Virus record (IMG/VR): IMGVR_UViG_3300032267_001142 | Span: 64,001 to 128,000 of that record | Length of the DNA: 64,000 nt | Direction: 5' to 3' (one strand) | Source: a virus | Shown here: positions 1-52,649 of the stretch, in pieces | Numbering within the stretch: position 1 is the first letter of the stretch | Layout of the letters: each line of letters opens with the position of its first letter | Notes under the pieces: generated by a model | Seen by the model: the letters and a program-made list of their open reading frames with translations, nothing else | What the model was told of the DNA's origin: nothing | Database searches by the model: none | Made by a program: the position numbers and the translations under genes

Positions 1-2739
1 GCAATCTCAAGTATACCACAGGTTAAAATCAACGGCTCTTCCAAGGCTTATGGAGGTTACATCTTTAATGTCAATTACGTTGTTGGCCTTAACAAAGTTC
101 CTTCAGAAATAACAATATCTTTTATTAGCGAATCCGGCTCATATCAACGCCCTACCCTTTCGAGCACGGTTCCCGTAAAAATCTCTATAGGCAATCTCGT
201 CGACGATACGTTTTACCCAATCTCTCTATCTGACAAGCGCAGCGGCGGCTCCAAAACCCTAGACGTTACATTCCGCGATTCTAGTCTAATTCTTGACAAA
301 TTGTTTATCGGATTGCACAAGCAACACGGTATCAATAAGAGGGCTGTCAGCAGAAAGAGCGCGACTAGCCTAGATAACTATGTGTCGAGCATATACCCAG
401 ACCCGATTCTTCATGTTTCGGAAAAAGGCTCGAATCTTATCATCGTTGGCGAAGAGGTTCACCCGTGCGACATGAACGACGATTTAGTTTTCGATGCTGC
501 GGATTTGGAGCTGCTCGCTTACGACGCTAGTGACCCCTGCCAGCTCAAATGCAATCATCATTACGCGGATTACAACTCTATACACGCAGAATGCGTCACA
601 AAAACCCGCACCTCAATTCTAGAAGTCAATTATAATCTAGAAGAGCTTCTCGCGGCAATCTCTCAGTATGTCTCGGTCGCTCAGGAGCCTTCGGATGTTC
701 ACACAAAATATCGAGCAAAATATACGGGGACGTTAAGGTCTGTATTGACTAGCTGGTGTTCCGACTTGGGATTATCTTTCTTCTGGGAAAAGGGACAGCT
801 ACATTTTGTAGATGTAAGTAAGAGAGTTAAAATAACGATTCCTGAGCTTCCTTGCTTTAAGGAATTCGAGTTCAATTCTACACTCGAAGGCACAATCTGC
901 CGAGGCACCATAACTAATTATTCAAAACAAGGCGAAATCATTTCCACCAATTGTAATTCGCCACAACCCGTTGCTCTTTCTTGTCTTACGCTACGTGACT
1001 TGTATCGTGATGTCTGGGTTCCTTCTGACCCGTTTGGCGACACTGGGACACCTCACCAGAAAAACAAAAGCTCTAGCGCGGCGGTAGGCACTTCTTCGTA
1101 TAAGTATAAAGACACTAAATATCCGCTAGGGGTTCCTGTCGAAAAACTGGAAGAGGCAGTTATTTGTTCTTTCTATGACCAGCGATTGAGATGGTTGTAT
1201 ATCCTAAGAAATTACTATGGACTGAACCAAGTCTCCGATTGGAGAGCCTCGATTAACGGGACGGCTGATAGGTTCGGGCAGATGAAAATTCTTGGCGTGT
1301 GCGACTCTTCTGACACTACGGCTTACTCCGCGCTGACTGCCGACGGAACTGCTTTTGATGTTAAACGTGGCGAACTAAAATCTTTCCAAGATAACCAAGG
1401 ATTCTTCGTCATCGCGGAGCTGAACCAAGACCTGTTAGAAGAGCAGTACGCGTTTGAGGCTGGCCTTGGCGCGTCTTTTATAGGTCAACACTGGGTTCGC
1501 AGCTATATCGGCCCAAATTCAGGCACCGCTCCAGAAATTAAACCCAACGGTCAATATTTGGGCGGAGCGACGGCGGAGCTTAAACAAGCAGGCTTCACTT
1601 CATTTCGGCACTCAAACAACTCTAAAGTAGCTAATCTCGCGAGACAACTTCAGGAACAACCCGAGTTGCTAGACAACAAAAGCCCGCTGAAGAATCGAAA
1701 TTTTATTCACAAAAACACGCGTTCTGTAATTTACTACGACAGAGGCTCCAACGCGAGATGGATGCCAAGAAGGGACGACAAACAAAACGAATTTCAAAAA
1801 GTCCTAGATAATATGGCCTCTCAGATGCCTGCGGTCATCAACGTTCAGGAGGCGGCAATTACTAATGTTCTGGCGTCTTTGCAAATATCGAACGCAAAAA
1901 ACGCTAAAGATTTGCAACAAAAAATCAAGGACAAAAAGGTTGTCATTTTGGCAATGTATCCAGGATACTTCACCATGACTGCATCGAAAGTCACAAATCC
2001 AGAAGAGGAGAGCCCGATGCACGTTCCTATCGGAGAGTCTTCGGTTTCTCAGCTCGGGCTGATGTCGAAGACTTCGTATAAGTATCTAGTCTGGGGAATG
2101 CCCGTTATTATGCCCGCCGCGTCTTCATGTAGGTTTAATAAGGACTACGATGACCCGTTGCTGACGACCTCAACAAACTTCCAGTTAAAAGTCAGGACTC
2201 AGGTCGATATGTCGAAGCCTTCTCTGATTACGGCTCCTCATTATCTGGTAGCTGTAAATCAAACCTATACGCCTTATTTTGAACTACCGAAGATACAGGC
2301 GGTGTTTTCCTCTTCTCCTGCGGTTGGGGACGCGCTTGCTGTCGAATACGCCGTTTATCCTCAAGGCTCCAAAAAAGAAATGGCTTTGCTTGCAAATATG
2401 AAAGACGAGTGCGTGCCTGATACGTCCTCTTTGCAGGCTTATCATGACGATTTCAACGCCAAACTCGTTGAAAGTGTCACGGAACCCTTTGACAGTTATA
2501 CGTTTTCGATTGACGGAGTTACCCTAGACAGCGCAGTGACGCCATCTATTTCCAATGGTTTAGAAAGAGTCAACATATCTGTATCCGAAAGAGGTGTTTC
2601 GTCTTCGTTCACTTTTGGAAATTCTTTGTTTACACCGATTCGTTTGGATACGAAACGCCAAGAAGTAGAATACGCGCTGGCGGCTTCTAGGAGGTCCGAA
2701 TTGTTCGGAAAATACGCAATGCCATCTCAGTCAGTATAA
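1..2739 (+). CDS. Putative virion structural/tail-associated protein, 5'-truncated by the window edge
   Basis: Frame is open from base 1 (AISSIPQVKINGSSKAY...) into the 301..2739 ORF, so the real start lies upstream. First of five contiguous or coupled + strand genes. No catalytic motif recognised; structural role inferred from context. Confidence 0.5.
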   Translation, partial: AISSIPQVKINGSSKAYGGYIFNVNYVVGLNKVPSEITISFISESGSYQRPTLSSTVPVKISIGNLVDDTFYPISLSDKRSGGSKTLDVTFRDSSLILDKLFIGLHKQHGINKRAVSRKSATSLDNYVSSIYPDPILHVSEKGSNLIIVGEEVHPCDMNDDLVFDAADLELLAYDASDPCQLKCNHHYADYNSIHAECVTKTRTSILEVNYNLEELLAAISQYVSVAQEPSDVHTKYRAKYTGTLRSVLTSWCSDLGLSFFWEKGQLHFVDVSKRVKITIPELPCFKEFEFNSTLEGTICRGTITNYSKQGEIISTNCNSPQPVALSCLTLRDLYRDVWVPSDPFGDTGTPHQKNKSSSAAVGTSSYKYKDTKYPLGVPVEKLEEAVICSFYDQRLRWLYILRNYYGLNQVSDWRASINGTADRFGQMKILGVCDSSDTTAYSALTADGTAFDVKRGELKSFQDNQGFFVIAELNQDLLEEQYAFEAGLGASFIGQHWVRSYIGPNSGTAPEIKPNGQYLGGATAELKQAGFTSFRHSNNSKVANLARQLQEQPELLDNKSPLKNRNFIHKNTRSVIYYDRGSNARWMPRRDDKQNEFQKVLDNMASQMPAVINVQEAAITNVLASLQISNAKNAKDLQQKIKDKKVVILAMYPGYFTMTASKVTNPEEESPMHVPIGESSVSQLGLMSKTSYKYLVWGMPVIMPAASSCRFNKDYDDPLLTTSTNFQLKVRTQVDMSKPSLITAPHYLVAVNQTYTPYFELPKIQAVFSSSPAVGDALAVEYAVYPQGSKKEMALLANMKDECVPDTSSLQAYHDDFNAKLVESVTEPFDSYTFSIDGVTLDSAVTPSISNGLERVNISVSERGVSSSFTFGNSLFTPIRLDTKRQEVEYALAASRRSELFGKYAMPSQSV

Positions 2740-5700
2740 TGAATACATCGTCAAAAATCAGCTCCAATTTCTATACTCAAACGGGAGTAGTAAGTTATCT
2801 ATTCGATATAGCACTCGATTCTACCCGCTCGGGCGCTTCTGTAGGCTTACGCTCCAGCTCTACTTCTTTCTATTTTACCTTTCGTAGTGGAAAGATTTTT
2901 GACTGGAGTAGACGAGTTATTGGTGGCTATTCTGCCGACGTTCCTGTAGAGATTTCTGGACAGGTGGGGCGCGGTCTCGCGGACTGCTTTATTAACGGTG
3001 TTCCAGCGGTTTTGGGCGGAGCTGCACCGACTGGAAATTGGACGGGTTGGTTTTTGGACCCTACCGGCGTTTCGGTAGATATCTTGAGTTCGGTACGCGG
3101 AAATCGTCCCGCTTACTCGGTGACTACTTCTGGAGAGTTTTTGGGACCGAACACCCCTGTATACGGGGCTATCACTAATAATTCCTCATTGCCGTTTTTG
3201 TTAGTGGGAACGGAGTTGATGTCTAATAGCTCTGACTTTAGGCTTACGTCTGGCGATAGCGGCAAAACGATTCAACCTTCAGAGAGCGGCGTTTTCGCGT
3301 TGAAGTCTGATGTTTCCGGAGCGTTCGGAGTTCTGCCTTTAAGGATTTCTACTGATTTCGGTCTAATTGATTTGAACTTTTCGGTTTACGGAAATTATCA
3401 AAACCTAGGGAACTCAAGCGTAACTATCTCGCCAGAATCGAATCTGAACGCCTTATTAGGCATCTACACTCCAGTCTCCTCTTTCGTAGATAACTATCCA
3501 AATAGTGCGGACTTTTCTGTAGAACTCGCGTATGTAAGCGGCACAACGGGAAACATTTTTGGAAGTCAGAGAAGAACACAAATAAAAACCGCCGCTCTTT
3601 CTGGTAAAATTTCTGGCTCTGGATTTTTGGAATCCGGAGCAGTTTCTACAATCGTCTATTTTGATACGGGTCTCTCGGGCAACGTTTCAGGTAACGGAAC
3701 TGGTGTTTATAGAAGTGCTTGGGTAACTTCAGTTTCAAGCGTTGGTCAAACCTTTAGTGTCCGTTCTACGGGACTCGGCGACGGGTCTCTATACGGCGAT
3801 TTCTCTGCTAGCGGAAAAGTCTTTTCTGCCGCGTCTGGAAATGTCGGACTGTTTGGCGATTACTCTTCTCCTAGAACGTTCTTTAATGTTTCTGGGTCTG
3901 GAACTTATCCGTTTTATTACCAAGGGGTAATACCGGTTTCTTCTGGACAATCGTTTTTAACTTACTCTGGTATTTTCCCTCTGTCGTCTATTATTCCTCA
4001 AGCTTACATAAGCTCAGGTCTACTGACAAAAGGTAAACTATTCTCCGGTTTACTGTATCAGCAGTATCGGGTCACTGGTTTGGGCTTCGCGACAGGAGCT
4101 TTTCAAACCGGTAAGGTAGACTCAAAATTCAACTACAATTTTGAACCAGGCTTATATATCTTTTCAAAGTCCTTTAGTGGATTGGTGTCCTCGTCACCTT
4201 ATACTCCGCCCGAACTTTTTGACCCGAGCGTTTGTGGTACCCAGAAAGAGATAGTCGCTAGTGGAGAAATTTTTGGAAACTTTTCTTGGCCGTCTTCAAA
4301 GATTTCCCTTCTCGGCCCAAGCGGATACAATAGTAGCGTAAGCGGAGACTTCTTGGACTGCGTTTCTATTAATTCGCTTCCTAACATTGTCGCTTCAGGT
4401 ATCCCATCCTCAATATTCGCTCCTGACGGTTCGGTCGTCTCTCATGATAGAGTTGTTTACTTTTCGCCGTCGGGAGGCTTTTCTGTCAATGAAAATAGCA
4501 GTTTCGTAGGCACCAAAAGAACTTCTATCTCAAGAATGGGTTCGACTCCCAGCGGCTACGGATTCTTTTCCGGAATAGTCGAGGACTGCGGACATGAGGG
4601 TGTGTGGAGGGAGTCCGTCTCTTATGAGTCTCAATTGCTATCGGGAAAACTAAGGCACGCCAAATATGGCGAAATGAGCTGCGTGGGGTTCCTCACCGAG
4701 AGCGGTGTCACTAAAAATAGTTTCGCGAAAGTTGTTATTGACTCGGAAAAGCCGATGTTGTTTTTGGCAGAGAACTATCCGAGCCTGCTGTCTCGATATG
4801 AGAATCTTGGGCAAACTGGGCAGACCTCTTTGTCAATGTATCCGGTGATAGAGCTTTATAAAAACTATTCTGGGGCTATCGCCGCGACAGGTTCAGTCGG
4901 GTGGACTGGCCGATTAATCTCAGGAGCGCGACTGTTTATAAACGGCTACGTTGCGAAATACGAACCCGTTCTGGGCTCTACAGGAAGTGGCGTTTTCTAT
5001 GATATTTATTCGCTAAAGTCGCTGCTTAACGACGACTTGAGGTATAAAGTTAAGGCGGAGGTAGATTATCCAGATTATAAATCGCTCTTTTTGTCTGCGA
5101 GAGTTTGGGGCGTCTCGGGAAATTCGGTAACTCTTTCTGGCAACTCTGGGTTCATATTCTCAGACAGCCATCTAACGGGCGGTATCGCCGAAGGCGCACA
5201 AGTCCGTTATTTGCCAATTTCTGAAAATTCATGCTGGAATCAGGGATTAGGAATGACGCAGTCCCTTTTAGAAAAGGCCAAAAAACCTCTGTCGTCATGC
5301 TATGCAGCAATCGGAACTGTATTGACAAAGGGAGAGTATATTCTCAAAACGTCTTATACCTCACCATTTGCAAGTGGCAATGCCAATTCTCGCGGCTTCG
5401 TTAGTTTTGCTACGGGCGAGTTTAGAACCTGCGAGTCTTGGAAATATCTTCCTGTTGAAATTAAAAGAGCTGGCGGCTCTTTGGGGCGCATTTACTGTGA
5501 AATCTCTACTTACGAAAGACCACAGGATATTGCAGAGGGCGCAGGAAAAGACTACACGGGAGACAAGTTTTATACACAACTGTCGGAAGGTCAGTCTGGG
5601 GCTTTTGTTTATGTCCCTGTTGTGGATGAGGGCGACAAGGAAGTGACAGAATCTCTCGGTCTCTCTTTGCTCGCTTATTATGAGAACGCTCCAGAAGTTT

Positions 5701-43516: not shown

Positions 43517-44692
43517 ATGACAATTAGCTTGCCTATTAACAATGAAAATTTCAATGTCGTCGCTGGCAGAATAGCCGGAGACGAGGTATTTCTTGTGACT
43601 CCAAAGGGTATCGGCGCGAAGTTCACAAAAGACGACTTGATTTTTAGGTCTTCAGTCTGGACTAAAGACGGAAAACCCGTCTCGTTGTCATTGAAGAAAT
43701 TCTTTAACCTAGGCGAACGTCCTGATATTTATGACGCATCTGAAGATTTGCGTTTTTGCGAGATTATTGAAAAAATTGACGGTTCCTTACTGTGTGTATC
43801 GAAGTATAAAGGTGAAACGATTATTCGTACACGAGGAACATTATCCGCATTCGGCATGCCGAACGCGGCGGACATCTCAGCTTTGCAGCTTCGATATCCG
43901 AAAGCTTTTGAAATGGCCGCTTACCCAAGTGGGACTTGCGACTATTCCTTGATTTTTGAGTGGTATTCTCCGTCCAACAAAATCGTCATATCCTACGGCG
44001 ATGAACCTGAGCTATTCCTGATTGGTTGCGTTTCTCACGAAGATTACAGCCTATACACTCAATCCCAGTTAGACGCTATAGCCGCAGAGCTAGGAGTGAG
44101 GAGGCCCAAAAGATACAAGTTCGACACGCTGGCCGAAATGAAAAGGGCCATCGGAGCTTTGGACTATCAGCAAACTCAGGCGATGAGGTCCACGAAAGAC
44201 GCGGAAGCCCCTCCTGACGCGGCTCCTCTGGAAGGCTTCGCGGGAATGGAAGGCTTCTGTGTTTACTCACGAAATGGCCAGAAAATAGCCAAAGTAAAGA
44301 GCGCCACGTACTTGTGCCTGCACCGCATGAAGTCGGAACTGTCGTCGTTTGACAAGGTTTTGGATTTGTGGTTGATAAGCGATAGCAAGAACTTCAACGA
44401 TTTCTATTCTTACGTCTGCACGAATCTTGACTTTGAGATTGCCGAAATGGCCAAACCAGACATGAGCAAGGTGGCTGACGCGGCCAAGCAGGTAGATGGT
44501 ATCATCGCAGGGATGTCTCGCTTCGTCGAGACACGCCTTCGCCATCTGTCTTCTAGAAAGGAGCAGGCTCTAGCTATCCAAAGCGCCTACTCAAACACAA
44601 ACCGAGCCAGCTTCGTGTTCGCTATACTTGACGGAAAAGACTTAACAATCGACCAAAAGAGAAAGCTCTATTGGCAAGTCATTAAAAAGTAA
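43517..44692 (+). CDS. RNA ligase, T4 Rnl1-like
   Basis: EKIDGSL motif I, IFEW, EGFCVY, AKVKSATYLCLH. Confidence 0.8.
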   Translation: MTISLPINNENFNVVAGRIAGDEVFLVTPKGIGAKFTKDDLIFRSSVWTKDGKPVSLSLKKFFNLGERPDIYDASEDLRFCEIIEKIDGSLLCVSKYKGETIIRTRGTLSAFGMPNAADISALQLRYPKAFEMAAYPSGTCDYSLIFEWYSPSNKIVISYGDEPELFLIGCVSHEDYSLYTQSQLDAIAAELGVRRPKRYKFDTLAEMKRAIGALDYQQTQAMRSTKDAEAPPDAAPLEGFAGMEGFCVYSRNGQKIAKVKSATYLCLHRMKSELSSFDKVLDLWLISDSKNFNDFYSYVCTNLDFEIAEMAKPDMSKVADAAKQVDGIIAGMSRFVETRLRHLSSRKEQALAIQSAYSNTNRASFVFAILDGKDLTIDQKRKLYWQVIKK

Positions 44693-44710
44693 TCCGGTGT
44701 AATCTTCTTG

Positions 44711-45364
44711 ATGAAGACTATTATCATCTCTGATATCCATTTGGGCAGTCCCGTCTGTCGGGCCGACAAGGTTCTGGACATTTTGAACTCCGATATGGAT
44801 GAATTAATCATTAATGGTGATTTAATAGACAGCAAGAACCTCACACGGTTTCGCTCTAAGCATTGGGAGATTTTGTCAAAGTTGAGAAAGTTGACGAAGA
44901 AGATTCCAACGCACCTTATCGGAGGGAACCATGACGGAGACTTAGGGCAGGTTTCTGATATGCTCGGTTTGGATTTCCGTCAGAGTATGGATATCAAAAC
45001 CGATAACTTTAATGCCTATGTTACTCACGGAGATAAGTTTGACCTCTGGATGAGCCTCCGAGGCGTGTCCGATTTCTTTTCTGGGCTTTACTATTACGTC
45101 CAAAGAATTGACAGTAAGAGTCGCCGGATGTCGAGGTTTATTAAACGCCTGAGCAAGAAGCTCATAAAGACAGACTCAAATATGGCAAATAAAGCGTGTC
45201 GCTACGCTAGCAAGCACGGTTACGATACCGCTATTTTGGGCCATAGTCATTTTGCAGACGATAAGATGATAGATGGCGTGCGTTACCTCAATAGTGGCTC
45301 TTTCTGTGAAGACCCGTGCCATTTTATTGAAGTTTCAGATTGCATTACTCTAAAAGAATGCTAG
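44711..45364 (+). CDS. LpxH-like calcineurin-family metallophosphoesterase
   Basis: SDIHLG, NGDLID, GGNHDG, THGDKFD, LGHSH, NSGS. Confidence 0.85.
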   Translation: MKTIIISDIHLGSPVCRADKVLDILNSDMDELIINGDLIDSKNLTRFRSKHWEILSKLRKLTKKIPTHLIGGNHDGDLGQVSDMLGLDFRQSMDIKTDNFNAYVTHGDKFDLWMSLRGVSDFFSGLYYYVQRIDSKSRRMSRFIKRLSKKLIKTDSNMANKACRYASKHGYDTAILGHSHFADDKMIDGVRYLNSGSFCEDPCHFIEVSDCITLKEC

Positions 45365-46108: not shown

Positions 46109-46480
46109 ATGAAAATAATTACAAGGTTCGTTAGATGGCTAACGAGATGGGCATGGAAGAAAGAGCTTGAGGCTACAGAAAACATCGCGACGCTAGAAAA
46201 GCTAGCCATGTCAGGAAATTACGCCGAGCTTGAGTTAAAGGCGAAATCTCCGGCGCTTCATCGTCATCTTTGTCGCTCTTTAGCGGCAATCGTCGCGGAA
46301 TCTCCGAATTACACAGAAATGAAATTCGATGTTGTCTCCGACCACGAGGACGGAAAGATATGGGTCACTGTCTTAGTTCAGAAAGGCTCAGGTCTTACTC
46401 CTCACGAATTGAGACGTGAAGCCGAGGCGCGGATAGCGGAGCTGCAAAAAGAGCTGGATTCTTTTAACAAGAGCAGTTAG
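46109..46480 (+). CDS. Hypothetical protein
   Basis: 123-aa ORF on the module strand. Confidence 0.5.
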   Translation: MKIITRFVRWLTRWAWKKELEATENIATLEKLAMSGNYAELELKAKSPALHRHLCRSLAAIVAESPNYTEMKFDVVSDHEDGKIWVTVLVQKGSGLTPHELRREAEARIAELQKELDSFNKSS

Positions 46481-46483
46481 TAT
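46455..46483 (+). promoter_or_regulatory. Sigma70-like promoter of the ABC-GNAT/MazG/aaRS-like/NADAR operon
   Basis: TGGATT, 17 nt, TAGTAT, 6 nt, ATG 46490. Confidence 0.5.
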
Positions 46484-46489
46484 CGCTCA

Positions 46490-47623
46490 ATGACACCGTC
46501 ACTTTCTGATAGAGCGGACCTAATCGTATTGCGGCATCCGATAGTTCACGATAAATATACACAGGCCGCGCAGCAGATGTTTGACGTGCCTCACGCCGAG
46601 GAAAGCGTTACAGTTATTCAAAACGAGCTGACGATGCCGACTTCCGATTGGAACATCGGGCTTATTCATGGTCCGAGCGGTGCAGGAAAGTCTACTCTTC
46701 TTCGCCAATTCGGGAATCCCAAGACTTTCGCGTGGGACGCTCAGAAATCCGTGATAAGCCACTTTGACAACGTGTCTCCAGAAGAAGCAGCGGCGCTGCT
46801 TTCTTCGGTAGGATTTTCTACGGTTCCTGCTTGGCTCCGTCCGTATCATTGCTTGAGTGTCGGGGAAAGGTTCAGGTGCGATTTGGCTAGAGCCGTGGCA
46901 AGCGATGATACTATCATTTTAGTCGATGAGTTTACTTCTGTAGTCGATAGGAACGTCGCTCGCTCAGCCTGCGTGGCGCTTTCAAAACTAATACGCAAGA
47001 CCGGCAAAAAAATTATTCTGGCCTCGTGTCATTCGGATATAATTCCTTGGCTTTGCCCTGACTGGAGCTATGACCCTTCGGAGGCTGTGACCCACGAGTA
47101 TGCTCGTGGGAGCCTTCAACGCCCCGACGTTCATCTCAAAGTATTCAGAACAAAATATGAGGCGTGGCACCTATTCAGCAAATATCACTATCTGAGTGGA
47201 GACCTAAACAAGGCCGCTCGATGTTTCATGGCTACGTGGAATGACGTGCCGGTAGCTTTTTGTGCTATCCTCGCAATGCCTAATCCATACAAGAAGAATT
47301 GCTGGAGAGCCTCACGCACAGTAGTATTACCTGACTATCAAGGTTTGGGCATCGGAGTTAAGTTGTCAGACTATATGGGTTCATTAGTCAAAGCTGGCGG
47401 TGGAGTATATTATTCAAAGACTATTCATCCAGCCCTCATCGCTCACCGTTTGAAATCTGGTAAATGGAAAGAGACCTCCCATAGCCGTCAAGCTCGTAAT
47501 CCTTCCAACGAGTCAATGCAAAAAAGAAATTGGTTCGTTAGCCCTAGATTCTGCTACGCTTTTGAATATACTGGAGAGCCCGCTACAGAAGGGGCTGATA
47601 ATATCTTCTGGCAGAAATGCTGA
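46490..47623 (+). CDS. ABC-type ATPase fused to a GNAT acetyltransferase-like domain
   Basis: GPSGAGKST, LSVGERFR (ABC signature), ILVDEFTSVVD, SCH; C-terminal RTVVLPDYQGLGIG (GNAT motif A). Confidence 0.85.
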   Translation: MTPSLSDRADLIVLRHPIVHDKYTQAAQQMFDVPHAEESVTVIQNELTMPTSDWNIGLIHGPSGAGKSTLLRQFGNPKTFAWDAQKSVISHFDNVSPEEAAALLSSVGFSTVPAWLRPYHCLSVGERFRCDLARAVASDDTIILVDEFTSVVDRNVARSACVALSKLIRKTGKKIILASCHSDIIPWLCPDWSYDPSEAVTHEYARGSLQRPDVHLKVFRTKYEAWHLFSKYHYLSGDLNKAARCFMATWNDVPVAFCAILAMPNPYKKNCWRASRTVVLPDYQGLGIGVKLSDYMGSLVKAGGGVYYSKTIHPALIAHRLKSGKWKETSHSRQARNPSNESMQKRNWFVSPRFCYAFEYTGEPATEGADNIFWQKC

Positions 47624-47877
47624 CCGCTAAGATTATGGGATATCATCGAAGAAAAATACCTAAAGGCAAACTAGGAGAAGCGTCCAAAATAACAGAAGAG
47701 TATCAAGAGATGCTCGATGGATTAGAGCAAGGAAATAAGGTGCTTGTTATCTGCGAGTTAGCTGATATGCTAGGAGCTATAGAAGCTTACGCTCTCAAGA
47801 CTTTCAATTTAACACTTGAGGATTTGCACAAAATGTCTAAAGCTACCGCAAGAGCTTTCAAAAAAGGAGACCGGTAA
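47617..47877 (+). CDS. Minimal MazG-like nucleotide pyrophosphohydrolase
   Basis: KITEEYQEMLD...ELADMLGAI (EExxE / ExxD). Confidence 0.7.
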   Translation: MLTAKIMGYHRRKIPKGKLGEASKITEEYQEMLDGLEQGNKVLVICELADMLGAIEAYALKTFNLTLEDLHKMSKATARAFKKGDR

Positions 47878-48458
47878 TGATAAACTTTAAGGTAATAGAT
47901 GATTCGATTAAGCACTATGAAAAACGCGGATTTCAGAGAATAGAGAGTCCGTGGACAGTGACTCAAGAAGTGCTGGATATCACTAAGCCTGATAGTGCCG
48001 TTGACTCGTTCCGGCTATTACATAAGAACGGTAAGGGTCTTGTAGCCTCTGGAGAGCAATCGTTTCTATATCTTTACTTGAAGGGTTTCCTACCGCTTGG
48101 AAGGTTCCAGACTGTGACGCCGTGTTTTAGGTTTGAGAATTTTGACTCCCTGCATACGAAATACTTCATAAAAAACGAACTAATAGAAACGAAAGCCGTC
48201 TCCGAGGCGACTCTAAATGATATTCTCGCGAACGCTCACGCTTTCTTCTCTTCGTATTTTTCAGACGCGGAGGAGCAGCTTAAAATAATAAAGACAAATA
48301 AAGAAGGCTCGCCAACGTCTTACGACATTTGTTATAGAGGCGTCGAGTTAGGAAGCTACGGTATTCGTAGTTGCGACTTTCTGGAATGGATTTATGGGAC
48401 TGGCGTTGCCGAGCCGAGGCTATCCCAAGTAATAAGGAAATTCAAAGACAAGCGATAA
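47877..48458 (+). CDS. Stand-alone class II aminoacyl-tRNA-synthetase-like catalytic core (193 aa)
   Basis: Motif 1 GFQRIESP, motif 2 CFRFE...H...FIKNEL, ELGSYG, motif 3 GTGVAEPRL. No tRNA-binding domain. Confidence 0.75.
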   Translation: MINFKVIDDSIKHYEKRGFQRIESPWTVTQEVLDITKPDSAVDSFRLLHKNGKGLVASGEQSFLYLYLKGFLPLGRFQTVTPCFRFENFDSLHTKYFIKNELIETKAVSEATLNDILANAHAFFSSYFSDAEEQLKIIKTNKEGSPTSYDICYRGVELGSYGIRSCDFLEWIYGTGVAEPRLSQVIRKFKDKR

Positions 48459-48896
48459 TGAAACAACCGATACTTGGATTCTTTGGAGACTTCCGTGTCC
48501 TATCTAACTTTTGGCCGTGCGTAATAGAATACTGCGGCTATTCTTACCAGAATACGGAGGCGGCTTTTCAGGGCAATAAAAGCAACTCACAAGAGGATAA
48601 AGAAAGGTTTTCTTCCATGACCGCCGCCGAAGCGAAGAGAGAAAGTAAGAAACTTCGGCTTCGCGATGACTGGCTCGCCGTTAGGGACCAAATAATGCTG
48701 GACCTTATTAGGATAAAGTTCTCTAGTGCGAACCCCCGACTTGGTAGATAAACTCGAAGCTACAGGGGACGCATATCTCGAAGAGACTAACACTTGGGGA
48801 GACATCTATTGGGGAGTTTGCAAAGGCGTCGGCCAGAATAAACTCGGGAAAATAATCGCGCAGGTCCGAGAAGAAAACAGAAGCTCTTTTTGTTAA
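48458..48896 (+). pseudogene. NADAR family protein interrupted by a +1 frameshift in a C5 run
   Basis: LSNFWP, TEAAFQGNK, DW...IMLDLIRIKF in one frame. Removing one C at 48733-37 restores NPDLVDKLEATG...EETNTWGDIYWG...GQNKLGKII, 145 aa in total. Confidence 0.85.
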
Positions 48897-48932: not shown

Positions 48933-48960
48933 TTGATTCTTCTCGAAAAACGTAGATAAT
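48933..48960 (+). promoter_or_regulatory. Sigma70-like promoter, leaderless geometry
   Basis: TTGATT, 16 nt, GATAAT, 6 nt, ATG 48967. Confidence 0.55.
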
Positions 48961-48966
48961 CGCGCT

Positions 48967-49998
48967 ATGAAAAGAAAACTGGCCTCAGTAAATGTCCTGA
49001 CGAATCTTCAAAAAATCGAGGGTGCCGACACCCTACAGAAGGGCAACATTCTGGGGTGGTCAGTAGTAACAAAAGCCGGAGCCTTCTCAGAGGGAGAAGA
49101 GGTCGTATACATCGAAGCGGATGCGGTTCTTCCAGAGGTTACGGAGTTCGAGTTTCTTCGCAAGAATAAGTTTAGGATTAAGCCGTGCAGGCTGCGCGGT
49201 CAGGTGTCTTTGGGACTCTGTATCCCTCTAAGCGAGGCGAAACAGGTCGCCGCAAATCTCGGCAACACAAACGTCAACTGGTCTGTCGGTGAAGATGTGA
49301 CAGAAGCGCTAGGAATCAAGAAGTTCGAGCCGTATGTTAGCCTATCCCTTTCTTCCGATATCAAGGGGCTATTTCCTTCATTCATTCCTCAGACCGATGA
49401 AATGAGAATCCAGTCAGTGCCAGAGCTTCTTAACAGGCACGAAAACCGTGAAGTCTATGTGTCTGAAAAATTGGAAGGAAGTTCCGCGACGTATTACTTG
49501 AATGATGGCGTCTTTGGGGTCTGTTCAAGGACGAGAGAACTTAAAGAGAGCGAATCTAACGCCTTCTGGTCCGTAGCGAAAAAGAACTCCATAGAACAGG
49601 GACTCAATACACTTGCTAAGTTCAGCAAGAATACCAAAAATATTGCTATCCAAGGCGAGCTGATTGGCCCTAAAATTCAGGGCAATCACTATGGATTAAC
49701 GGCTCCAGAATTTCGTCTTTTCAATGTTTGGGATATTGACAAACAGTGTCCGGTCGATTATGGTGACTTGTGCCTCGCCAGCTCAGTTCTTGAGCTGTAT
49801 TTGGTGCCAATCGTATATCACCGTATAAATCTGTCCGACAAAACTCTGGAAGAGTGGGTTTCTTTTGCTAACGGAAGAAGTCAGCTTGCCGATGTTCTCC
49901 GCGAAGGAATCGTCGTCAGGGCGATTTCTCCAGTCAGAGACGAAGACGTAGGCTGGATGTCCTTCAAGGCGATTTCTTCCGAATACCTTCTGCGATAA
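48967..49998 (+). CDS. RNA ligase, DRB0094 (Rnl5)-like
   Basis: N-terminal OB-like KIEGAD...GWSVV, SEKLEGSS, QGELIG, FRLFNV, EGIVVR, SFKAIS. Confidence 0.88.
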   Translation: MKRKLASVNVLTNLQKIEGADTLQKGNILGWSVVTKAGAFSEGEEVVYIEADAVLPEVTEFEFLRKNKFRIKPCRLRGQVSLGLCIPLSEAKQVAANLGNTNVNWSVGEDVTEALGIKKFEPYVSLSLSSDIKGLFPSFIPQTDEMRIQSVPELLNRHENREVYVSEKLEGSSATYYLNDGVFGVCSRTRELKESESNAFWSVAKKNSIEQGLNTLAKFSKNTKNIAIQGELIGPKIQGNHYGLTAPEFRLFNVWDIDKQCPVDYGDLCLASSVLELYLVPIVYHRINLSDKTLEEWVSFANGRSQLADVLREGIVVRAISPVRDEDVGWMSFKAISSEYLLR

Positions 49999-51119
49999 TG
50001 AACAACCTGCCCACATTATACTCCCGTAATCAAGACGGCTCCGTCCAGCAGTGGACTATCTTTTATGATGAAGATGGGTATTGGACGGAAAGCGGAAGAG
50101 TTGACGGCGTCATAACGCAGCACGGCAAGGTCGCGTGCGTAGGTAAAAATCTCGGGAAAAAGAACGAGACCACCGCAGCCCAACAAGCCGCGAGCGAGGC
50201 GCGTAGTAAGTTTGATAAGAAACTCAAGACCGGCCACTTCGAGGATGTGGCGCACATTGATAACTTCTACTTTGTAGAGCCCCAATTAGCAGTAGCGCTT
50301 GATAAAGTTAAGGCTGGTCTAGTTACACCGTGTTTGGTGCAGTGTAAGTATAACGGCGGCTGCGTTATTGCGACCCGTAAAGGTCTGTTTTCTCGCAAAG
50401 GCGAAGAGTATCTGTCGATACCTCACATTCAGCAGGCATTGAAGCCTATATTCGACAAATATCCAAACGCGGTCCTTCACGGCGAGGCGTTTAACGAAGG
50501 GTTACGCCAGCATCTTAATGAGATAATGAAGATTCTACGCAGAACTGTGAATGTCACCTCGGAAGTGTTACAGCGTAGCGAACAGCTCGTCCGTTTTTAT
50601 ATTTATGACGGTTATGGGTTTGAGGGAATGGAAGAGGAGACGCCATACAAGGACCGCAAGGCTGCGATTGACAACATTATCGCTGGGCATCCTAAATATT
50701 TATTTCAAGTTCCTACAGCGAAATGCTTGACGCAAAAAGAAGTTTGGGCGCTTTATCAAAGTTACATAGACGATGGGCACGAAGGGGCTATCGTCCGCTA
50801 CGAAGACAACATCTACGAACACAAACGCACACAGAAGCTTATCAAGCTCAAGCCTACGGACGATGATGAATTTTTGGTTGTAGCCTTACATGAAGGCACC
50901 GGAGACTGGGCTGGCACGGCTAGGCGCGTTGATTTCAAAATGAAGAACGGCGAAGTGTTCGGCGGCAACTTTAAGGGAAAGTTTGAGCAGGCGAAAGACG
51001 CTTGGGAGCACCCAGAGAAATATGTCGGCAAAGTCGTAACAGTGAGCTACAACGGACTCACTGGGCTGAATACTCCCAATTTCGCGCAGCTTGACCCCGA
51101 CAATTGTTTCAAATCGTAA
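49998..51119 (+). CDS. lig: ATP-dependent DNA ligase
   Basis: KYNG motif I, LHGEAF, FYIYD, GHEGAIVR, LIKLKP and an OB domain. Confidence 0.88.
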   Translation: MNNLPTLYSRNQDGSVQQWTIFYDEDGYWTESGRVDGVITQHGKVACVGKNLGKKNETTAAQQAASEARSKFDKKLKTGHFEDVAHIDNFYFVEPQLAVALDKVKAGLVTPCLVQCKYNGGCVIATRKGLFSRKGEEYLSIPHIQQALKPIFDKYPNAVLHGEAFNEGLRQHLNEIMKILRRTVNVTSEVLQRSEQLVRFYIYDGYGFEGMEEETPYKDRKAAIDNIIAGHPKYLFQVPTAKCLTQKEVWALYQSYIDDGHEGAIVRYEDNIYEHKRTQKLIKLKPTDDDEFLVVALHEGTGDWAGTARRVDFKMKNGEVFGGNFKGKFEQAKDAWEHPEKYVGKVVTVSYNGLTGLNTPNFAQLDPDNCFKS

Positions 51120-51526
51120 TGCCGGAAGCAAAAACAACAAAAGTTGGCAAAGTTTTCATTTTTCCGTCAAGCAAGTTCTATTATTCGATAGAATTTGTAG
51201 ACAACCTGACTGAACTGGAATCGTTTTTATCTGGTCCTTGTGAAATAAAGCCCGAAGCTTTATGTATCTCTGGGCAAATAACTCCAAGGGCTACTAATTC
51301 TGTGGGCCGGATTATCTTTAGAAGAGACTTATTCAATGTGCGTCTGGTCGTTCATGAAGCGTGCCACGCTGCACATTATATCGTTCATGGGGGCTACTTT
51401 GAATTCAAAGGCGATGCCTTTGATAAAGAAGAGCTTGTCGCGACTTTCACTGAAATGATTTTCGCGAAGACCTGCCGAGTAGTTTCTCGATTTGAAGATT
51501 TGACTGATTCCAAAAAGCGAAGATAA
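51119..51526 (+). CDS. Hypothetical protein with HExxH motif
   Basis: VVHEACHAAH...EELVA; TAATG-coupled start at 51119. Confidence 0.5.
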   Translation: MPEAKTTKVGKVFIFPSSKFYYSIEFVDNLTELESFLSGPCEIKPEALCISGQITPRATNSVGRIIFRRDLFNVRLVVHEACHAAHYIVHGGYFEFKGDAFDKEELVATFTEMIFAKTCRVVSRFEDLTDSKKRR

Positions 51527-51990
51527 TGGCAGAAATGAAAGCGAACGCAAACAGTTTGTATTTAATGGTCGGGGCTCCAGCTTCAGGAAAGAGCACTTTT
51601 TCCATTCTCGATGCCGAGAAGAAAAGAGCCATCCGACTCAGCAGCGACGAGCTGCGTGCCACGATTGGTAAAAACGAAGAAGACCAAACCGTTACGGGCA
51701 AAGTTTTTGACTTTATTAAGGCCGCTGTCAAATACTTTCTGCGCGGAGGGTTTTCCGTCATCGTAGACGCCACGAACATCAATAAGAAAAACAGAGCGGA
51801 CTATCTCCGCATAGCCACGGAACTTAATGTGTCAGCGGTCGCTGTATGCTTTGAGGTGCCCGTCGAAGAGCTGAAGAAACGAAATTCCGAAAGGGCGCGC
51901 CAAGTGCCCGAATGGGTTATCGACAGATTTGTCAACTCGTACGAGCGCCCCACCCTATCTGAGGGCTTTTCGCGCATAGAAATGAGATAA
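51526..51990 (+). CDS. Polynucleotide kinase-like P-loop kinase
   Basis: GAPASGKST, SSDELR, IVDATN, RNSER...VPEWVI. Confidence 0.85.
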   Translation: MAEMKANANSLYLMVGAPASGKSTFSILDAEKKRAIRLSSDELRATIGKNEEDQTVTGKVFDFIKAAVKYFLRGGFSVIVDATNINKKNRADYLRIATELNVSAVAVCFEVPVEELKKRNSERARQVPEWVIDRFVNSYERPTLSEGFSRIEMR

Positions 51991-51992
51991 CA

Positions 51993-52649
51993 ATGTTAAA
52001 AAATATCCACTTAACCACAAAAAACGGCAGCAACGTCTGGTTCTGCTCTGATACCCACTTCGGGCATGATAAGGAATTCATTATCAAGCCAAGGGGTTTC
52101 AATTCCATTCAGGAACACGATGCCGCTATCATAAAAGCTTGGAACGAGCGCGTGAAACCCTCCGACGCTGTCGTATTCCTAGGGGACTTCAGCCTGCGTT
52201 CGAGTGTAGAGCGGACAAAAGAGCTTCTGAATCTTCTGCATGGAACGATTTACTACATTTGGGGAAATCACGAAAGCTACGCTACGAGGATTTACAAAGA
52301 GGAACTCAACAAAGAGTTCGGCCACGCGAATTTCGAGATTTATCCCTTGAAGTGGAACAATAAAGTTGTATTCTTGGGCTCTGTAGCGAATGTTGTTGTC
52401 GATGGTCAGTTCATCGTGTGCTCTCATTTCCCATTTAGAATCTGGGAACACTGTCACCACGGGTCTTGGAATCTGAGCGGTCATAGCCACAGCAACGACA
52501 AAGAAAGAAACCCTGACCACACCGAGGGCAAGTGCCTCGATTGCGGCATTGATAACTTCTCCGGCCCGATAAGCTTCGCGGAAGTTTCTGAGAAACTCAA
52601 AAACCGAACGGTGGTCGCGTTAGACCATCACAATAGAAAAACCACATAA
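51993..52649 (+). CDS. Calcineurin-like phosphoesterase (possible RNA end-healing partner)
   Basis: SDTHFGH, LGDF, WGNHE, CSHFP, LSGHSH, DCGID. Confidence 0.85.
   Translation: MLKNIHLTTKNGSNVWFCSDTHFGHDKEFIIKPRGFNSIQEHDAAIIKAWNERVKPSDAVVFLGDFSLRSSVERTKELLNLLHGTIYYIWGNHESYATRIYKEELNKEFGHANFEIYPLKWNNKVVFLGSVANVVVDGQFIVCSHFPFRIWEHCHHGSWNLSGHSHSNDKERNPDHTEGKCLDCGIDNFSGPISFAEVSEKLKNRTVVALDHHNRKTT

Follow-up and report, generated by a model that had tools for sequence, protein, structure and literature searches.

The amino acid:[carrier protein] ligases typified by Bll0957 are a described parallel to the function proposed for the enzyme at the center of this study, in that they adenylate an amino acid and transfer it to an acceptor other than tRNA. 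They are said, after the work of Mocibob et al. in 2010, to be proteins of about 300 amino acids (aa) that work with a phosphopantetheinyl carrier protein. A second relevant family is NADAR, whose domains remove ADP-ribose from guanine and act as antitoxins of DarT1, with other NADARs cleaving riboflavin intermediates (PMC11543638); phage NADARs such as AdfN (gp30.3) of T4 neutralize DarTG1 (PMC11257639). A review of jumbo phages mentions MazG and NADAR in general terms only (PMC7824862), and our literature searches found no paper on the gene pair or on the fused ATPase-acyltransferase that we describe below. Here, we examine a 2.4-kb block of genes in a 64,000-nucleotide stretch of phage DNA (the window, positions 64,001 to 128,000 of IMG/VR record IMGVR_UViG_3300032267_001142, which is complete at 186,105 bp and has terminal repeats). 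The block encodes, in order, an ABC-type ATPase fused to a GNAT acyltransferase (ABC-GNAT), a small HisE/MazG-like protein, a core resembling class II aminoacyl-tRNA synthetases (aaRSs) and in particular seryl-tRNA synthetase (SerRS), which we call mini-SerRS, and a NADAR. The initial annotation of this DNA took the four genes to be one self-contained pathway. Our comparison suggests a different arrangement, which we consider likely: the stretch consists of three independently inherited accessory modules, namely ABC-GNAT, the HisE/MazG-like protein with mini-SerRS, and NADAR, lying head to tail in a long array, and only the MazG-like and mini-SerRS genes travel together.

The strongest result concerns the two middle genes. 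Relatives of the aaRS-like protein escaped a single-sequence query, which found none, and an alignment query was needed to recover what is a large family: one search gave 1849 matches, and a second, clustered at 50% identity, gave 1589 representatives. We analyzed a viral sample of 35 IMG/VR loci, with flanks of 8 kb on either side of the aaRS-like gene, the 35 whole records being searched with profiles as well, and a cellular sample of 31 loci from a species-genome collection, mostly from candidate phyla radiation (CPR) bacteria and DPANN archaea, together with metagenome-assembled genomes (MAGs) of other uncultured bacteria. When all window proteins were compared with the viral loci by tblastn, the MazG-like gene was found to adjoin the aaRS-like gene on the same strand in 35/35, mostly with the two genes overlapping or lying within a few bases of each other, and two further contigs (L044 and L045) also carry them side by side. 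In the cellular sample, the partner is present in 26 of the 31 loci, adjacent in 15 and fused in 11. Single-chain fusions of the core to the MazG-like domain, 260-268 aa long, account for 7 of the best 150 representatives of the 50%-identity clusters, and the model of such a fusion protein is confident (predicted local distance difference test score, pLDDT, 95; predicted template modeling score, pTM, 0.76). The order of the genes is not fixed: the MazG-like gene comes first in the window, in phi92 (gp197/gp196), in CR3 (gp192/gp191), and in CcrColossus (gp132/gp133), and the core comes first in most viral loci. The adjacency persists across inverted gene orders, and fusion is found repeatedly; both speak strongly for joint action of the MazG-like and mini-SerRS proteins. 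The two are obligate partners, and their pair is the only true unit in the block. One relative of 443 aa (P0255) has its core, residues 1-183, fused to a phrog_20092 domain and not to a MazG-like domain.

The first and last genes of the block show no such attachment. The initial annotation had proposed a four-gene pathway and named co-occurrence as a conserved cassette in other genomes as the check on it; run on the viral sample, this check finds all four genes together in 0/35 loci. ABC-GNAT was not found by tblastn within 8 kb of the pair in any of the 35, and across the whole records it occurs at full length (phrog_11143) in two, both of one lineage, where about 190 kb separate it from the pair. 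Its relatives number at least 4886 and include copies with no pair nearby in Nonlabens phage P12024S (gp24), Tenacibaculum phage pT24, Aeromonas phage PX29, and loci L050-L052, where the settings are replication or early regions of unrelated phages. ABC-GNAT is thus an independent and widespread phage module. Its best matches lie in phages of Flavobacteriia. A ParB_N domain, looked for in the present genome as a possible partner, is absent. In pT24 (L038, 4004-5176), it is annotated as two open reading frames (ORFs), one ABC and one GNAT, across which tblastn aligns a single piece. NADAR is present in 19/35 of the records with the pair according to the profile search, which also placed NADARs in four of the 35 flanks where tblastn had found none. 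In 15 of the 19, the gene lies 14-100 kb from the pair, and in one it is 5 kb away on the other strand. NADAR is a common and loosely placed phage gene of the counter-defense kind, to which AdfN, directed against DarTG1, also belongs. The block as a whole has no blastn match among 50,697 phage records. What we retain from the initial annotation is its reading of the parts: there are four consecutive reading units on the same strand where it placed them, and profiles and folds bear out all four family assignments. What we do not retain is the single self-contained pathway, since only the MazG-like/aaRS-like pair is conserved and ABC-GNAT and NADAR are not linked to it.

None of the four proteins exceeds an NCBIfam cut-off, and the assignments draw on other profiles. 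ABC-GNAT exceeds the Pfam cut-offs of both of its halves (ABC_tran, 1e-8, 36.3 bits against 25; Acetyltransf_1, 4.7e-6, 27.3 bits against 20.7) and matches phrog_11143 at 2e-114. A Walker A motif (GPSGAGKST), a signature (LSVGE), and a Walker B motif (ILVDE) can be read in the ATPase part, as can an acyl-CoA motif (YQGLGIG, of the Q/RxxGxG/A form) in the GNAT part. From this domain logic, the protein would most likely acylate a nucleic acid or another macromolecule, coupling ATP hydrolysis to acyl-CoA transfer.

The NADAR gene raises a question of its own. It had been described as a single ORF; the signal indeed runs over 48458-48896, but a +1 shift of frame at a run of five C residues (Table 1) divides the gene, and each half falls under the PF08719 cut-off of 35.1 bits. 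If CCCC is read as one proline, the two parts join into a 145-aa protein (P0280) with a score of 61.1 bits on the same profile, and its residues 2-144 are 47% identical to those of unbroken NADARs from T5-like phages. We tentatively entertain the possibility that the gene is not dead. Either the assembly could be wrong at the homopolymer, or the frame could be shifted by +1 in a programmed manner at CCC-C before CGA. Both halves score as NADAR and, joined at the C run, give an uninterrupted full-length match, and the neighboring long ORFs of the array are unbroken. CCC_C also lets tRNAPro re-pair in the +1 frame. Against the programmed version, the NADAR match lacks an internal stop in 18/19 of the NADAR-bearing viral records (the copy in G022 has three) and is a single ORF at the frameshift position in T5-like phages; because NADARs elsewhere are mostly unbroken, there is no conserved recoding signal, nor was a stimulatory element identified at the window gene. 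A frameshifted gene of this kind gives modest reason for care when counter-defense genes are annotated automatically.

The mini-SerRS core matches phrog_4806 (1.4e-39), a family labeled "histidyl tRNA synthetase", and has no Pfam match, including to tRNA-synt_2b and PF02403. The AlphaFold2 model (pLDDT 96, pTM 0.91) matches the class II catalytic domains of PylRS, SerRS, and PheRS-alpha at about E 1e-10 in Foldseek, and a second structure search places SerRS catalytic domains first (Z 17.7-19.8, root-mean-square deviation 2.5-2.8, about 188 of the 193 residues aligned), followed by HisRS/HisZ, PylRS, the Pol-gamma accessory subunit, and Bll0957 (Z 17.0). Membership of class II is further indicated by a nearly invariant P25 and an invariant R85 and R181, in line with the proline and the motif-2 and motif-3 arginines that the class calls for. 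Alignment to Escherichia coli SerS by hhalign (89% probability) pairs ASGEQ with PTAEV (S58 and E60 on T and E), TPCFRxE with TPCFRSE, and FxKxE with FDKVE (F97, K99, and E101); by eye, ELGSYG can be placed on EISSCS (E157 and S160) and GTGxAEPR on GSGLAVGR (T175 and R181). Across 74 diverse members of the family, S58, E60, R85, F97, K99, E101, E157, S160, T175, and R181 are invariant. These include the SerRS-type active-site residues for serine and ATP, and we take the conserved residues to be the ATP- and serine-binding positions of SerRS structures. The N-terminal coiled-coil tRNA-binding arm (PF02403) is absent from the 193-aa protein, which begins at the core; the motif-2 loop is 7 residues shorter than that of E. 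coli SerS in the hhalign alignment; and a segment of about 20 residues that SerS has between the EISS and GSGLAVGR stretches is missing by eye. The arm and the loop segments are presumably the tRNA-contacting parts of SerRS. On sequence and model together, we read the core as SerRS-derived, with its active site apparently kept and its tRNA-contacting parts deleted. Faint PF00152 flags had raised the alternative of a class IIb ancestry, similar to AsnA or EpmA, which we rejected because structure and motifs favor SerRS.

The partner matches phrog_6408 (3e-28) and is best described as a small, all-alpha protein of the HisE/MazG type. The window copy scores 16.8 bits on PF01503 (PRA-PH), under the cut-off of 21.3, and the same profile is matched by 27/33 members of the family at E <= 0.05, the best at 4.6e-5. 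Five acidic residues (E27, E28, E31, E47, and D50) are invariant in 33 aligned sequences and form the metal-binding pattern EExxE...ExxD on a helical bundle that is expected of MazG and HisE. In the model of the fusion protein, the partner domain consists of three helices after an extended YH segment. Its neighbors in the Atlas are viral clusters with PRA-PH or MazG, and a viral fold search matches it to a phage protein annotated as MazG-like; a sequence search of the PDB with the MazG-like profile returned spurious coiled-coil matches only. Judged by these conserved residues, the partner is probably an active enzyme of the nucleoside triphosphate (NTP) pyrophosphohydrolase type.

What might the two proteins do together? 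Given that the ATP- and serine-binding residues are kept, the core should adenylate an amino acid, most likely serine (giving seryl-AMP) or else a small one like it. The loss of the arm, of the motif-2-loop residues, and of the further segment suggests that the acceptor is probably not a canonically recognized tRNA, and the core would then pass its amino acid to some other acceptor. Since EExxE...ExxD is kept in the partner, it should cleave a pyrophosphate bond of the nucleoside-triphosphate type, presumably in the same nucleotide-linked substrate or product. Because the genes are always adjacent or fused, the two proteins most likely handle the same nucleotide-linked small molecule one after the other. 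One element of the initial annotation is plausible in this light, namely that an aaRS-like core acts with a MazG-like protein on something other than tRNA.

The genes found near the pair elsewhere offer a weak hint of nucleotide, RNA-end, or NAD metabolism. In the viral loci, an RNA ligase lies near the pair in eight cases, NAMPT in five, and a DNA ligase in five, and phi92 has NrdD and NrdG nearby. In that phage (L001, NC_023693; 3756-5991 of the locus), gp197/gp196 are followed by gp195, which has a GatB/YqeY domain (phrog_1460), with class III ribonucleotide reductase genes coming next. No GatB/YqeY-type protein of this kind was found in the phage genome studied here. In the cellular loci, the pair has a small radical SAM protein as a neighbor in six and NrdR in five. 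The radical SAM protein, of about 230 aa, directly flanks the fused gene on the same strand (L061, L065 at 4737-5435, L068, L071, L077, and L082) and has low-score similarity to MoaA, viperin, and NrdG, which are enzymes acting on NTPs. NrdR lies on the opposite strand in the five loci, which are from CPR bacteria (for example, L057:3120-3641). A hidden Markov model of the small radical SAM neighbor has no match in the window, in the phage's own radical SAM locus, or in the viral loci. The phage genome does hold one radical SAM protein (151173-151634 of the record, outside the window, about 39 kb from the pair), and it is unrelated to the radical SAM neighbor of CPR and DPANN genomes.

Of the other explanations for the pair, the one that fares best, though we consider it unlikely, is that mini-SerRS is a real tRNA-charging enzyme, serving tRNASer of the phage or the host, or else a tRNA that has been damaged or repaired, and that its helical MazG-like partner replaces the lost arm. 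The MazG-like-then-core order of the window, phi92, CR3, and CcrColossus would mirror the arm-then-core order of SerRS, the GatB/YqeY protein beside the phi92 pair is of a tRNA-binding type, and RNA ligases are often close by. However, core-then-MazG-like is the commonest viral order, YqeY is missing from this genome, and the partner's invariants are acidic and metal binding where a basic RNA-binding surface would be called for, in addition to the deletions in the core itself. A MAG of a Nanoarchaeota member (L060) carries a complete SerRS (1798-3090; Seryl_tRNA_N and tRNA-synt_2b) 0.9 kb upstream of the fused gene (3974-4789), which indicates that the mini form is no replacement for the housekeeping enzyme.

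A further possibility, which we regard as very unlikely, ties the pair to NADAR by way of the chemistry of ADP-ribose or NAD; the core could, for instance, aminoacylate an adenine-nucleotide derivative, or the three proteins could process an immune signal based on ADP-ribose. In L012 the core has NADAR immediately before it, in L029 and L024 the distance is about 2 kb or less, in L045 it is 3.9 kb, and in the window the two adjoin; genes for NAMPT or NMNAT also turn up repeatedly close to the pair. Yet NADAR is missing from 16/35 of the records with the pair (many of which are fragments), it stands at least 14 kb off in most of the records that have it, and the window copy is broken. Large phages in general often carry NADAR and NAD-salvage genes (PMC7824862), so that closeness to the pair may reflect a shared accessory-gene region. 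A bolder version of our own proposal deserves little credence as yet, in which the pair is a two-step enzyme that would attach serine or an amino acid like it to a free adenine nucleotide or a nucleotide-derived molecule, and not to tRNA, and then trim the pyrophosphate. Loading could take place on the ribose of a molecule such as ATP, ADP-ribose, or an immune signal, and the occasional NADAR, NAMPT, and radical SAM neighbors would provide accessory steps. If true, it would mean that large phages, CPR bacteria, and DPANN archaea use an aminoacyl-nucleotide metabolite.

The boundaries of the block are less sharp than had been described. The letters of the promoter proposed upstream of ABC-GNAT are present, but they contain the TAG stop of the preceding ORF (46109-46480), they match the consensus poorly (Table 1), and our promoter scan does not report them. 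Over 43-53 kb, that scan gives 14 promoter-like sites against 13.0 +/- 3.9 in shuffled sequence, which is what chance would give, and it uses a consensus of the E. coli type that may not suit the host. On the downstream side, a better site does occur at 48933; yet the upstream ORF ends only 9 nt before 46490, and no terminator-like site was found on the + strand after 48896 in the scan of the same region. Shine-Dalgarno sequences are absent at most starts in the array (46490, 48967, and others in 43-50 kb); the mini-SerRS start is an exception, with AGGAG 7 nt upstream. Together with the Flavobacteriia matches of ABC-GNAT, this raises the possibility of a host bacterium that relies little on Shine-Dalgarno signals, and such a host would also weaken promoter calls that use an E. 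coli consensus. Within the block, TAATG is present at both later junctions (47875-47879 and 48456-48460), as described. The 7-nt overlap between ABC-GNAT and the MazG-like gene (47617-47623) exists only if the latter starts at ATG 47617. In our alignment of 33 homologs, stand-alone proteins begin M-G/A/S-Y-H, which points to ATG 47635 and leaves a gap of 11 nt; a few have upstream extensions that come from ORF calls.

Several observations weigh against the view that the block is three unlinked modules. A related contig, which carries P0284, has the order Rnl1, DUF5662, x, ABC-GNAT, a 185-aa ORF, RNA ligase, NADAR, and DNA ligase, so that the arrangement is conserved at least within this phage lineage; this is synteny at the level of a lineage and not a conserved cassette. 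In 4/19 of the NADAR-bearing records, as well as in L045 and the window, no more than 6 kb separates NADAR from the pair, which is somewhat oftener than random placement would give. With TAATG packing, the genes are probably co-transcribed and translationally coupled, which is compatible with a local functional link of a kind that conservation cannot detect. In addition, the substrate assignments for the four proteins rest on conserved residues. Even so, it is highly improbable that the four proteins belong to a single pathway, run from a promoter of its own, for making, installing, or removing a nucleotide modification of the aminoacyl or acyl type, because the tight packing, the shared handling of nucleotides or nucleic acids by all the families, and the lineage relative that keeps ABC-GNAT and NADAR in the same neighborhood have to be set against an ABC-GNAT that is never near the pair in the sampled loci and has relatives without it, a NADAR that is mostly distant and is frameshifted here, a promoter match no better than chance, and the close upstream gene.

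The block sits within an array of rightward genes on the same strand that extends over about 19 kb, from 43517 to about 62.8 kb (Table 1). In the window, the genes at 43517-45364 and 48967-52649 that flank the block include two RNA ligases, two metallophosphoesterases, a P-loop kinase of the AAA_33/KTI12 type, and a DNA ligase. If combined, the kinase, phosphoesterase, and ligase activities predicted for these genes would amount to a set for RNA-end healing and sealing.

Table 1. Features of the block and of the gene array around it (window coordinates)
Feature	Position	Strand	Details
Promoter motif of the initial annotation, TGGATT-17-TAGTAT-6-ATG	46455-46483	+	Letters present; 7/12 (3+4) consensus positions
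ABC-type ATPase fused to GNAT acyltransferase	46490-47623	+	377 aa; Pfam and phrog_11143
Small HisE/MazG-type all-alpha NTP pyrophosphohydrolase-like protein	47635 (or 47617)-47877	+	80 aa (or 86 aa)
Mini seryl-tRNA-synthetase-like catalytic core	47877-48458	+	193 aa; phrog_4806 and structure
NADAR, N-terminal part	48458-48751	+	Frame 0, 97 aa then stop; PF08719 positions 11-104, 29.5 bits
C5 homopolymer, point of the +1 frame shift	48733-48737	+	Read from the sequence
NADAR, C-terminal part	48738-48896	+	Frame +1 (open 48726-48896); PF08719 positions 104-161, 23.9 bits
Promoter-like site TTGATT-16-GATAAT	48933-48960	+	9/12; between the block and the RNA ligase gene (70-nt gap; start 48967)
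Array before the block, in order		+	Rnl1-type RNA ligase, metallophosphoesterase, DUF5662, protein without assignment
Array after the block, in order		+	PHA02142-type RNA ligase, DNA ligase, AAA_33/KTI12 kinase, second metallophosphoesterase
Array further on, in order		+	NMNAT-Nudix, NAMPT, ThyA, Pyr_excise glycosylase, DUF4326-SLOG

For future work, this has a practical side. As a unit, the four-gene "pathway" is a chance juxtaposition and is not worth pursuing, and the effort of cloning it and searching for adducts by liquid chromatography-mass spectrometry would be wasted. What is left is a widespread and strictly linked enzyme pair, with about 1600 clusters at 50% identity, which is carried by the cultured phages phi92, CR3, Acj61, and CcrColossus as well as by huge phages and by CPR and DPANN genomes. 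As the active sites look intact and the tRNA-handling parts are deleted, the pair probably makes an amino-acid/nucleotide product. Since tractable phages of E. coli, Cronobacter, and Acinetobacter carry it, a direct test is possible.

How do the members of the block compare with the systems that are known? The window NADAR is a free-standing phage NADAR domain, like AdfN and the NADARs associated with DarT1, and differs from them in being split by a +1 frameshift. ABC-GNAT recalls TmcA/NAT10, in which an NTPase domain is also fused to a GNAT acyl-CoA transferase, suggesting ATP-driven acylation of nucleic acid. However, its ATPase is of the ABC type (Walker A, LSVGE, Walker B, and H-loop) and that of TmcA is of the helicase type, and the TmcA/NAT10 architecture is not reproduced, Pfam finding ABC_tran and GNAT only, with no DUF1726 and no tRNA-binding domain. 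The small partner shares with HisE and MazG a short helical build, the EExxE...ExxD pattern, and, in most of the family, the PF01503 match. It differs in invariant residues that are specific to the family, a YH motif at the N-terminal end and an R at the C-terminal one, in the window copy's score below the Pfam cut-off, and in being an obligate neighbor or fusion partner of a SerRS-like core, a pairing that, to our knowledge, has not been described for HisE or MazG.

For the core, two comparisons can be drawn. With the amino acid:[carrier protein] ligases (Bll0957, PDB 3MEY), it shares a truncated SerRS-type core without a tRNA-binding domain, as the structural match reflects; unlike the case of those ligases, no carrier protein gene is seen near the phage pair, and the conserved partner is an NTP-pyrophosphatase-like protein. 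With SerRS itself, it shares the fold over almost its whole length, a TPCFRxE stretch identical to that of E. coli SerS, and the active-site positions (S/T)xE, FxKxE, E..S, and (S/T)G..R. It departs from SerRS in having no N-terminal arm, no tRNA-synt_2b match, a shortened motif-2 loop, and no counterpart of a stretch of about 20 residues that follows the E..SS strand, and in always being paired or fused with a MazG/HisE-like protein.

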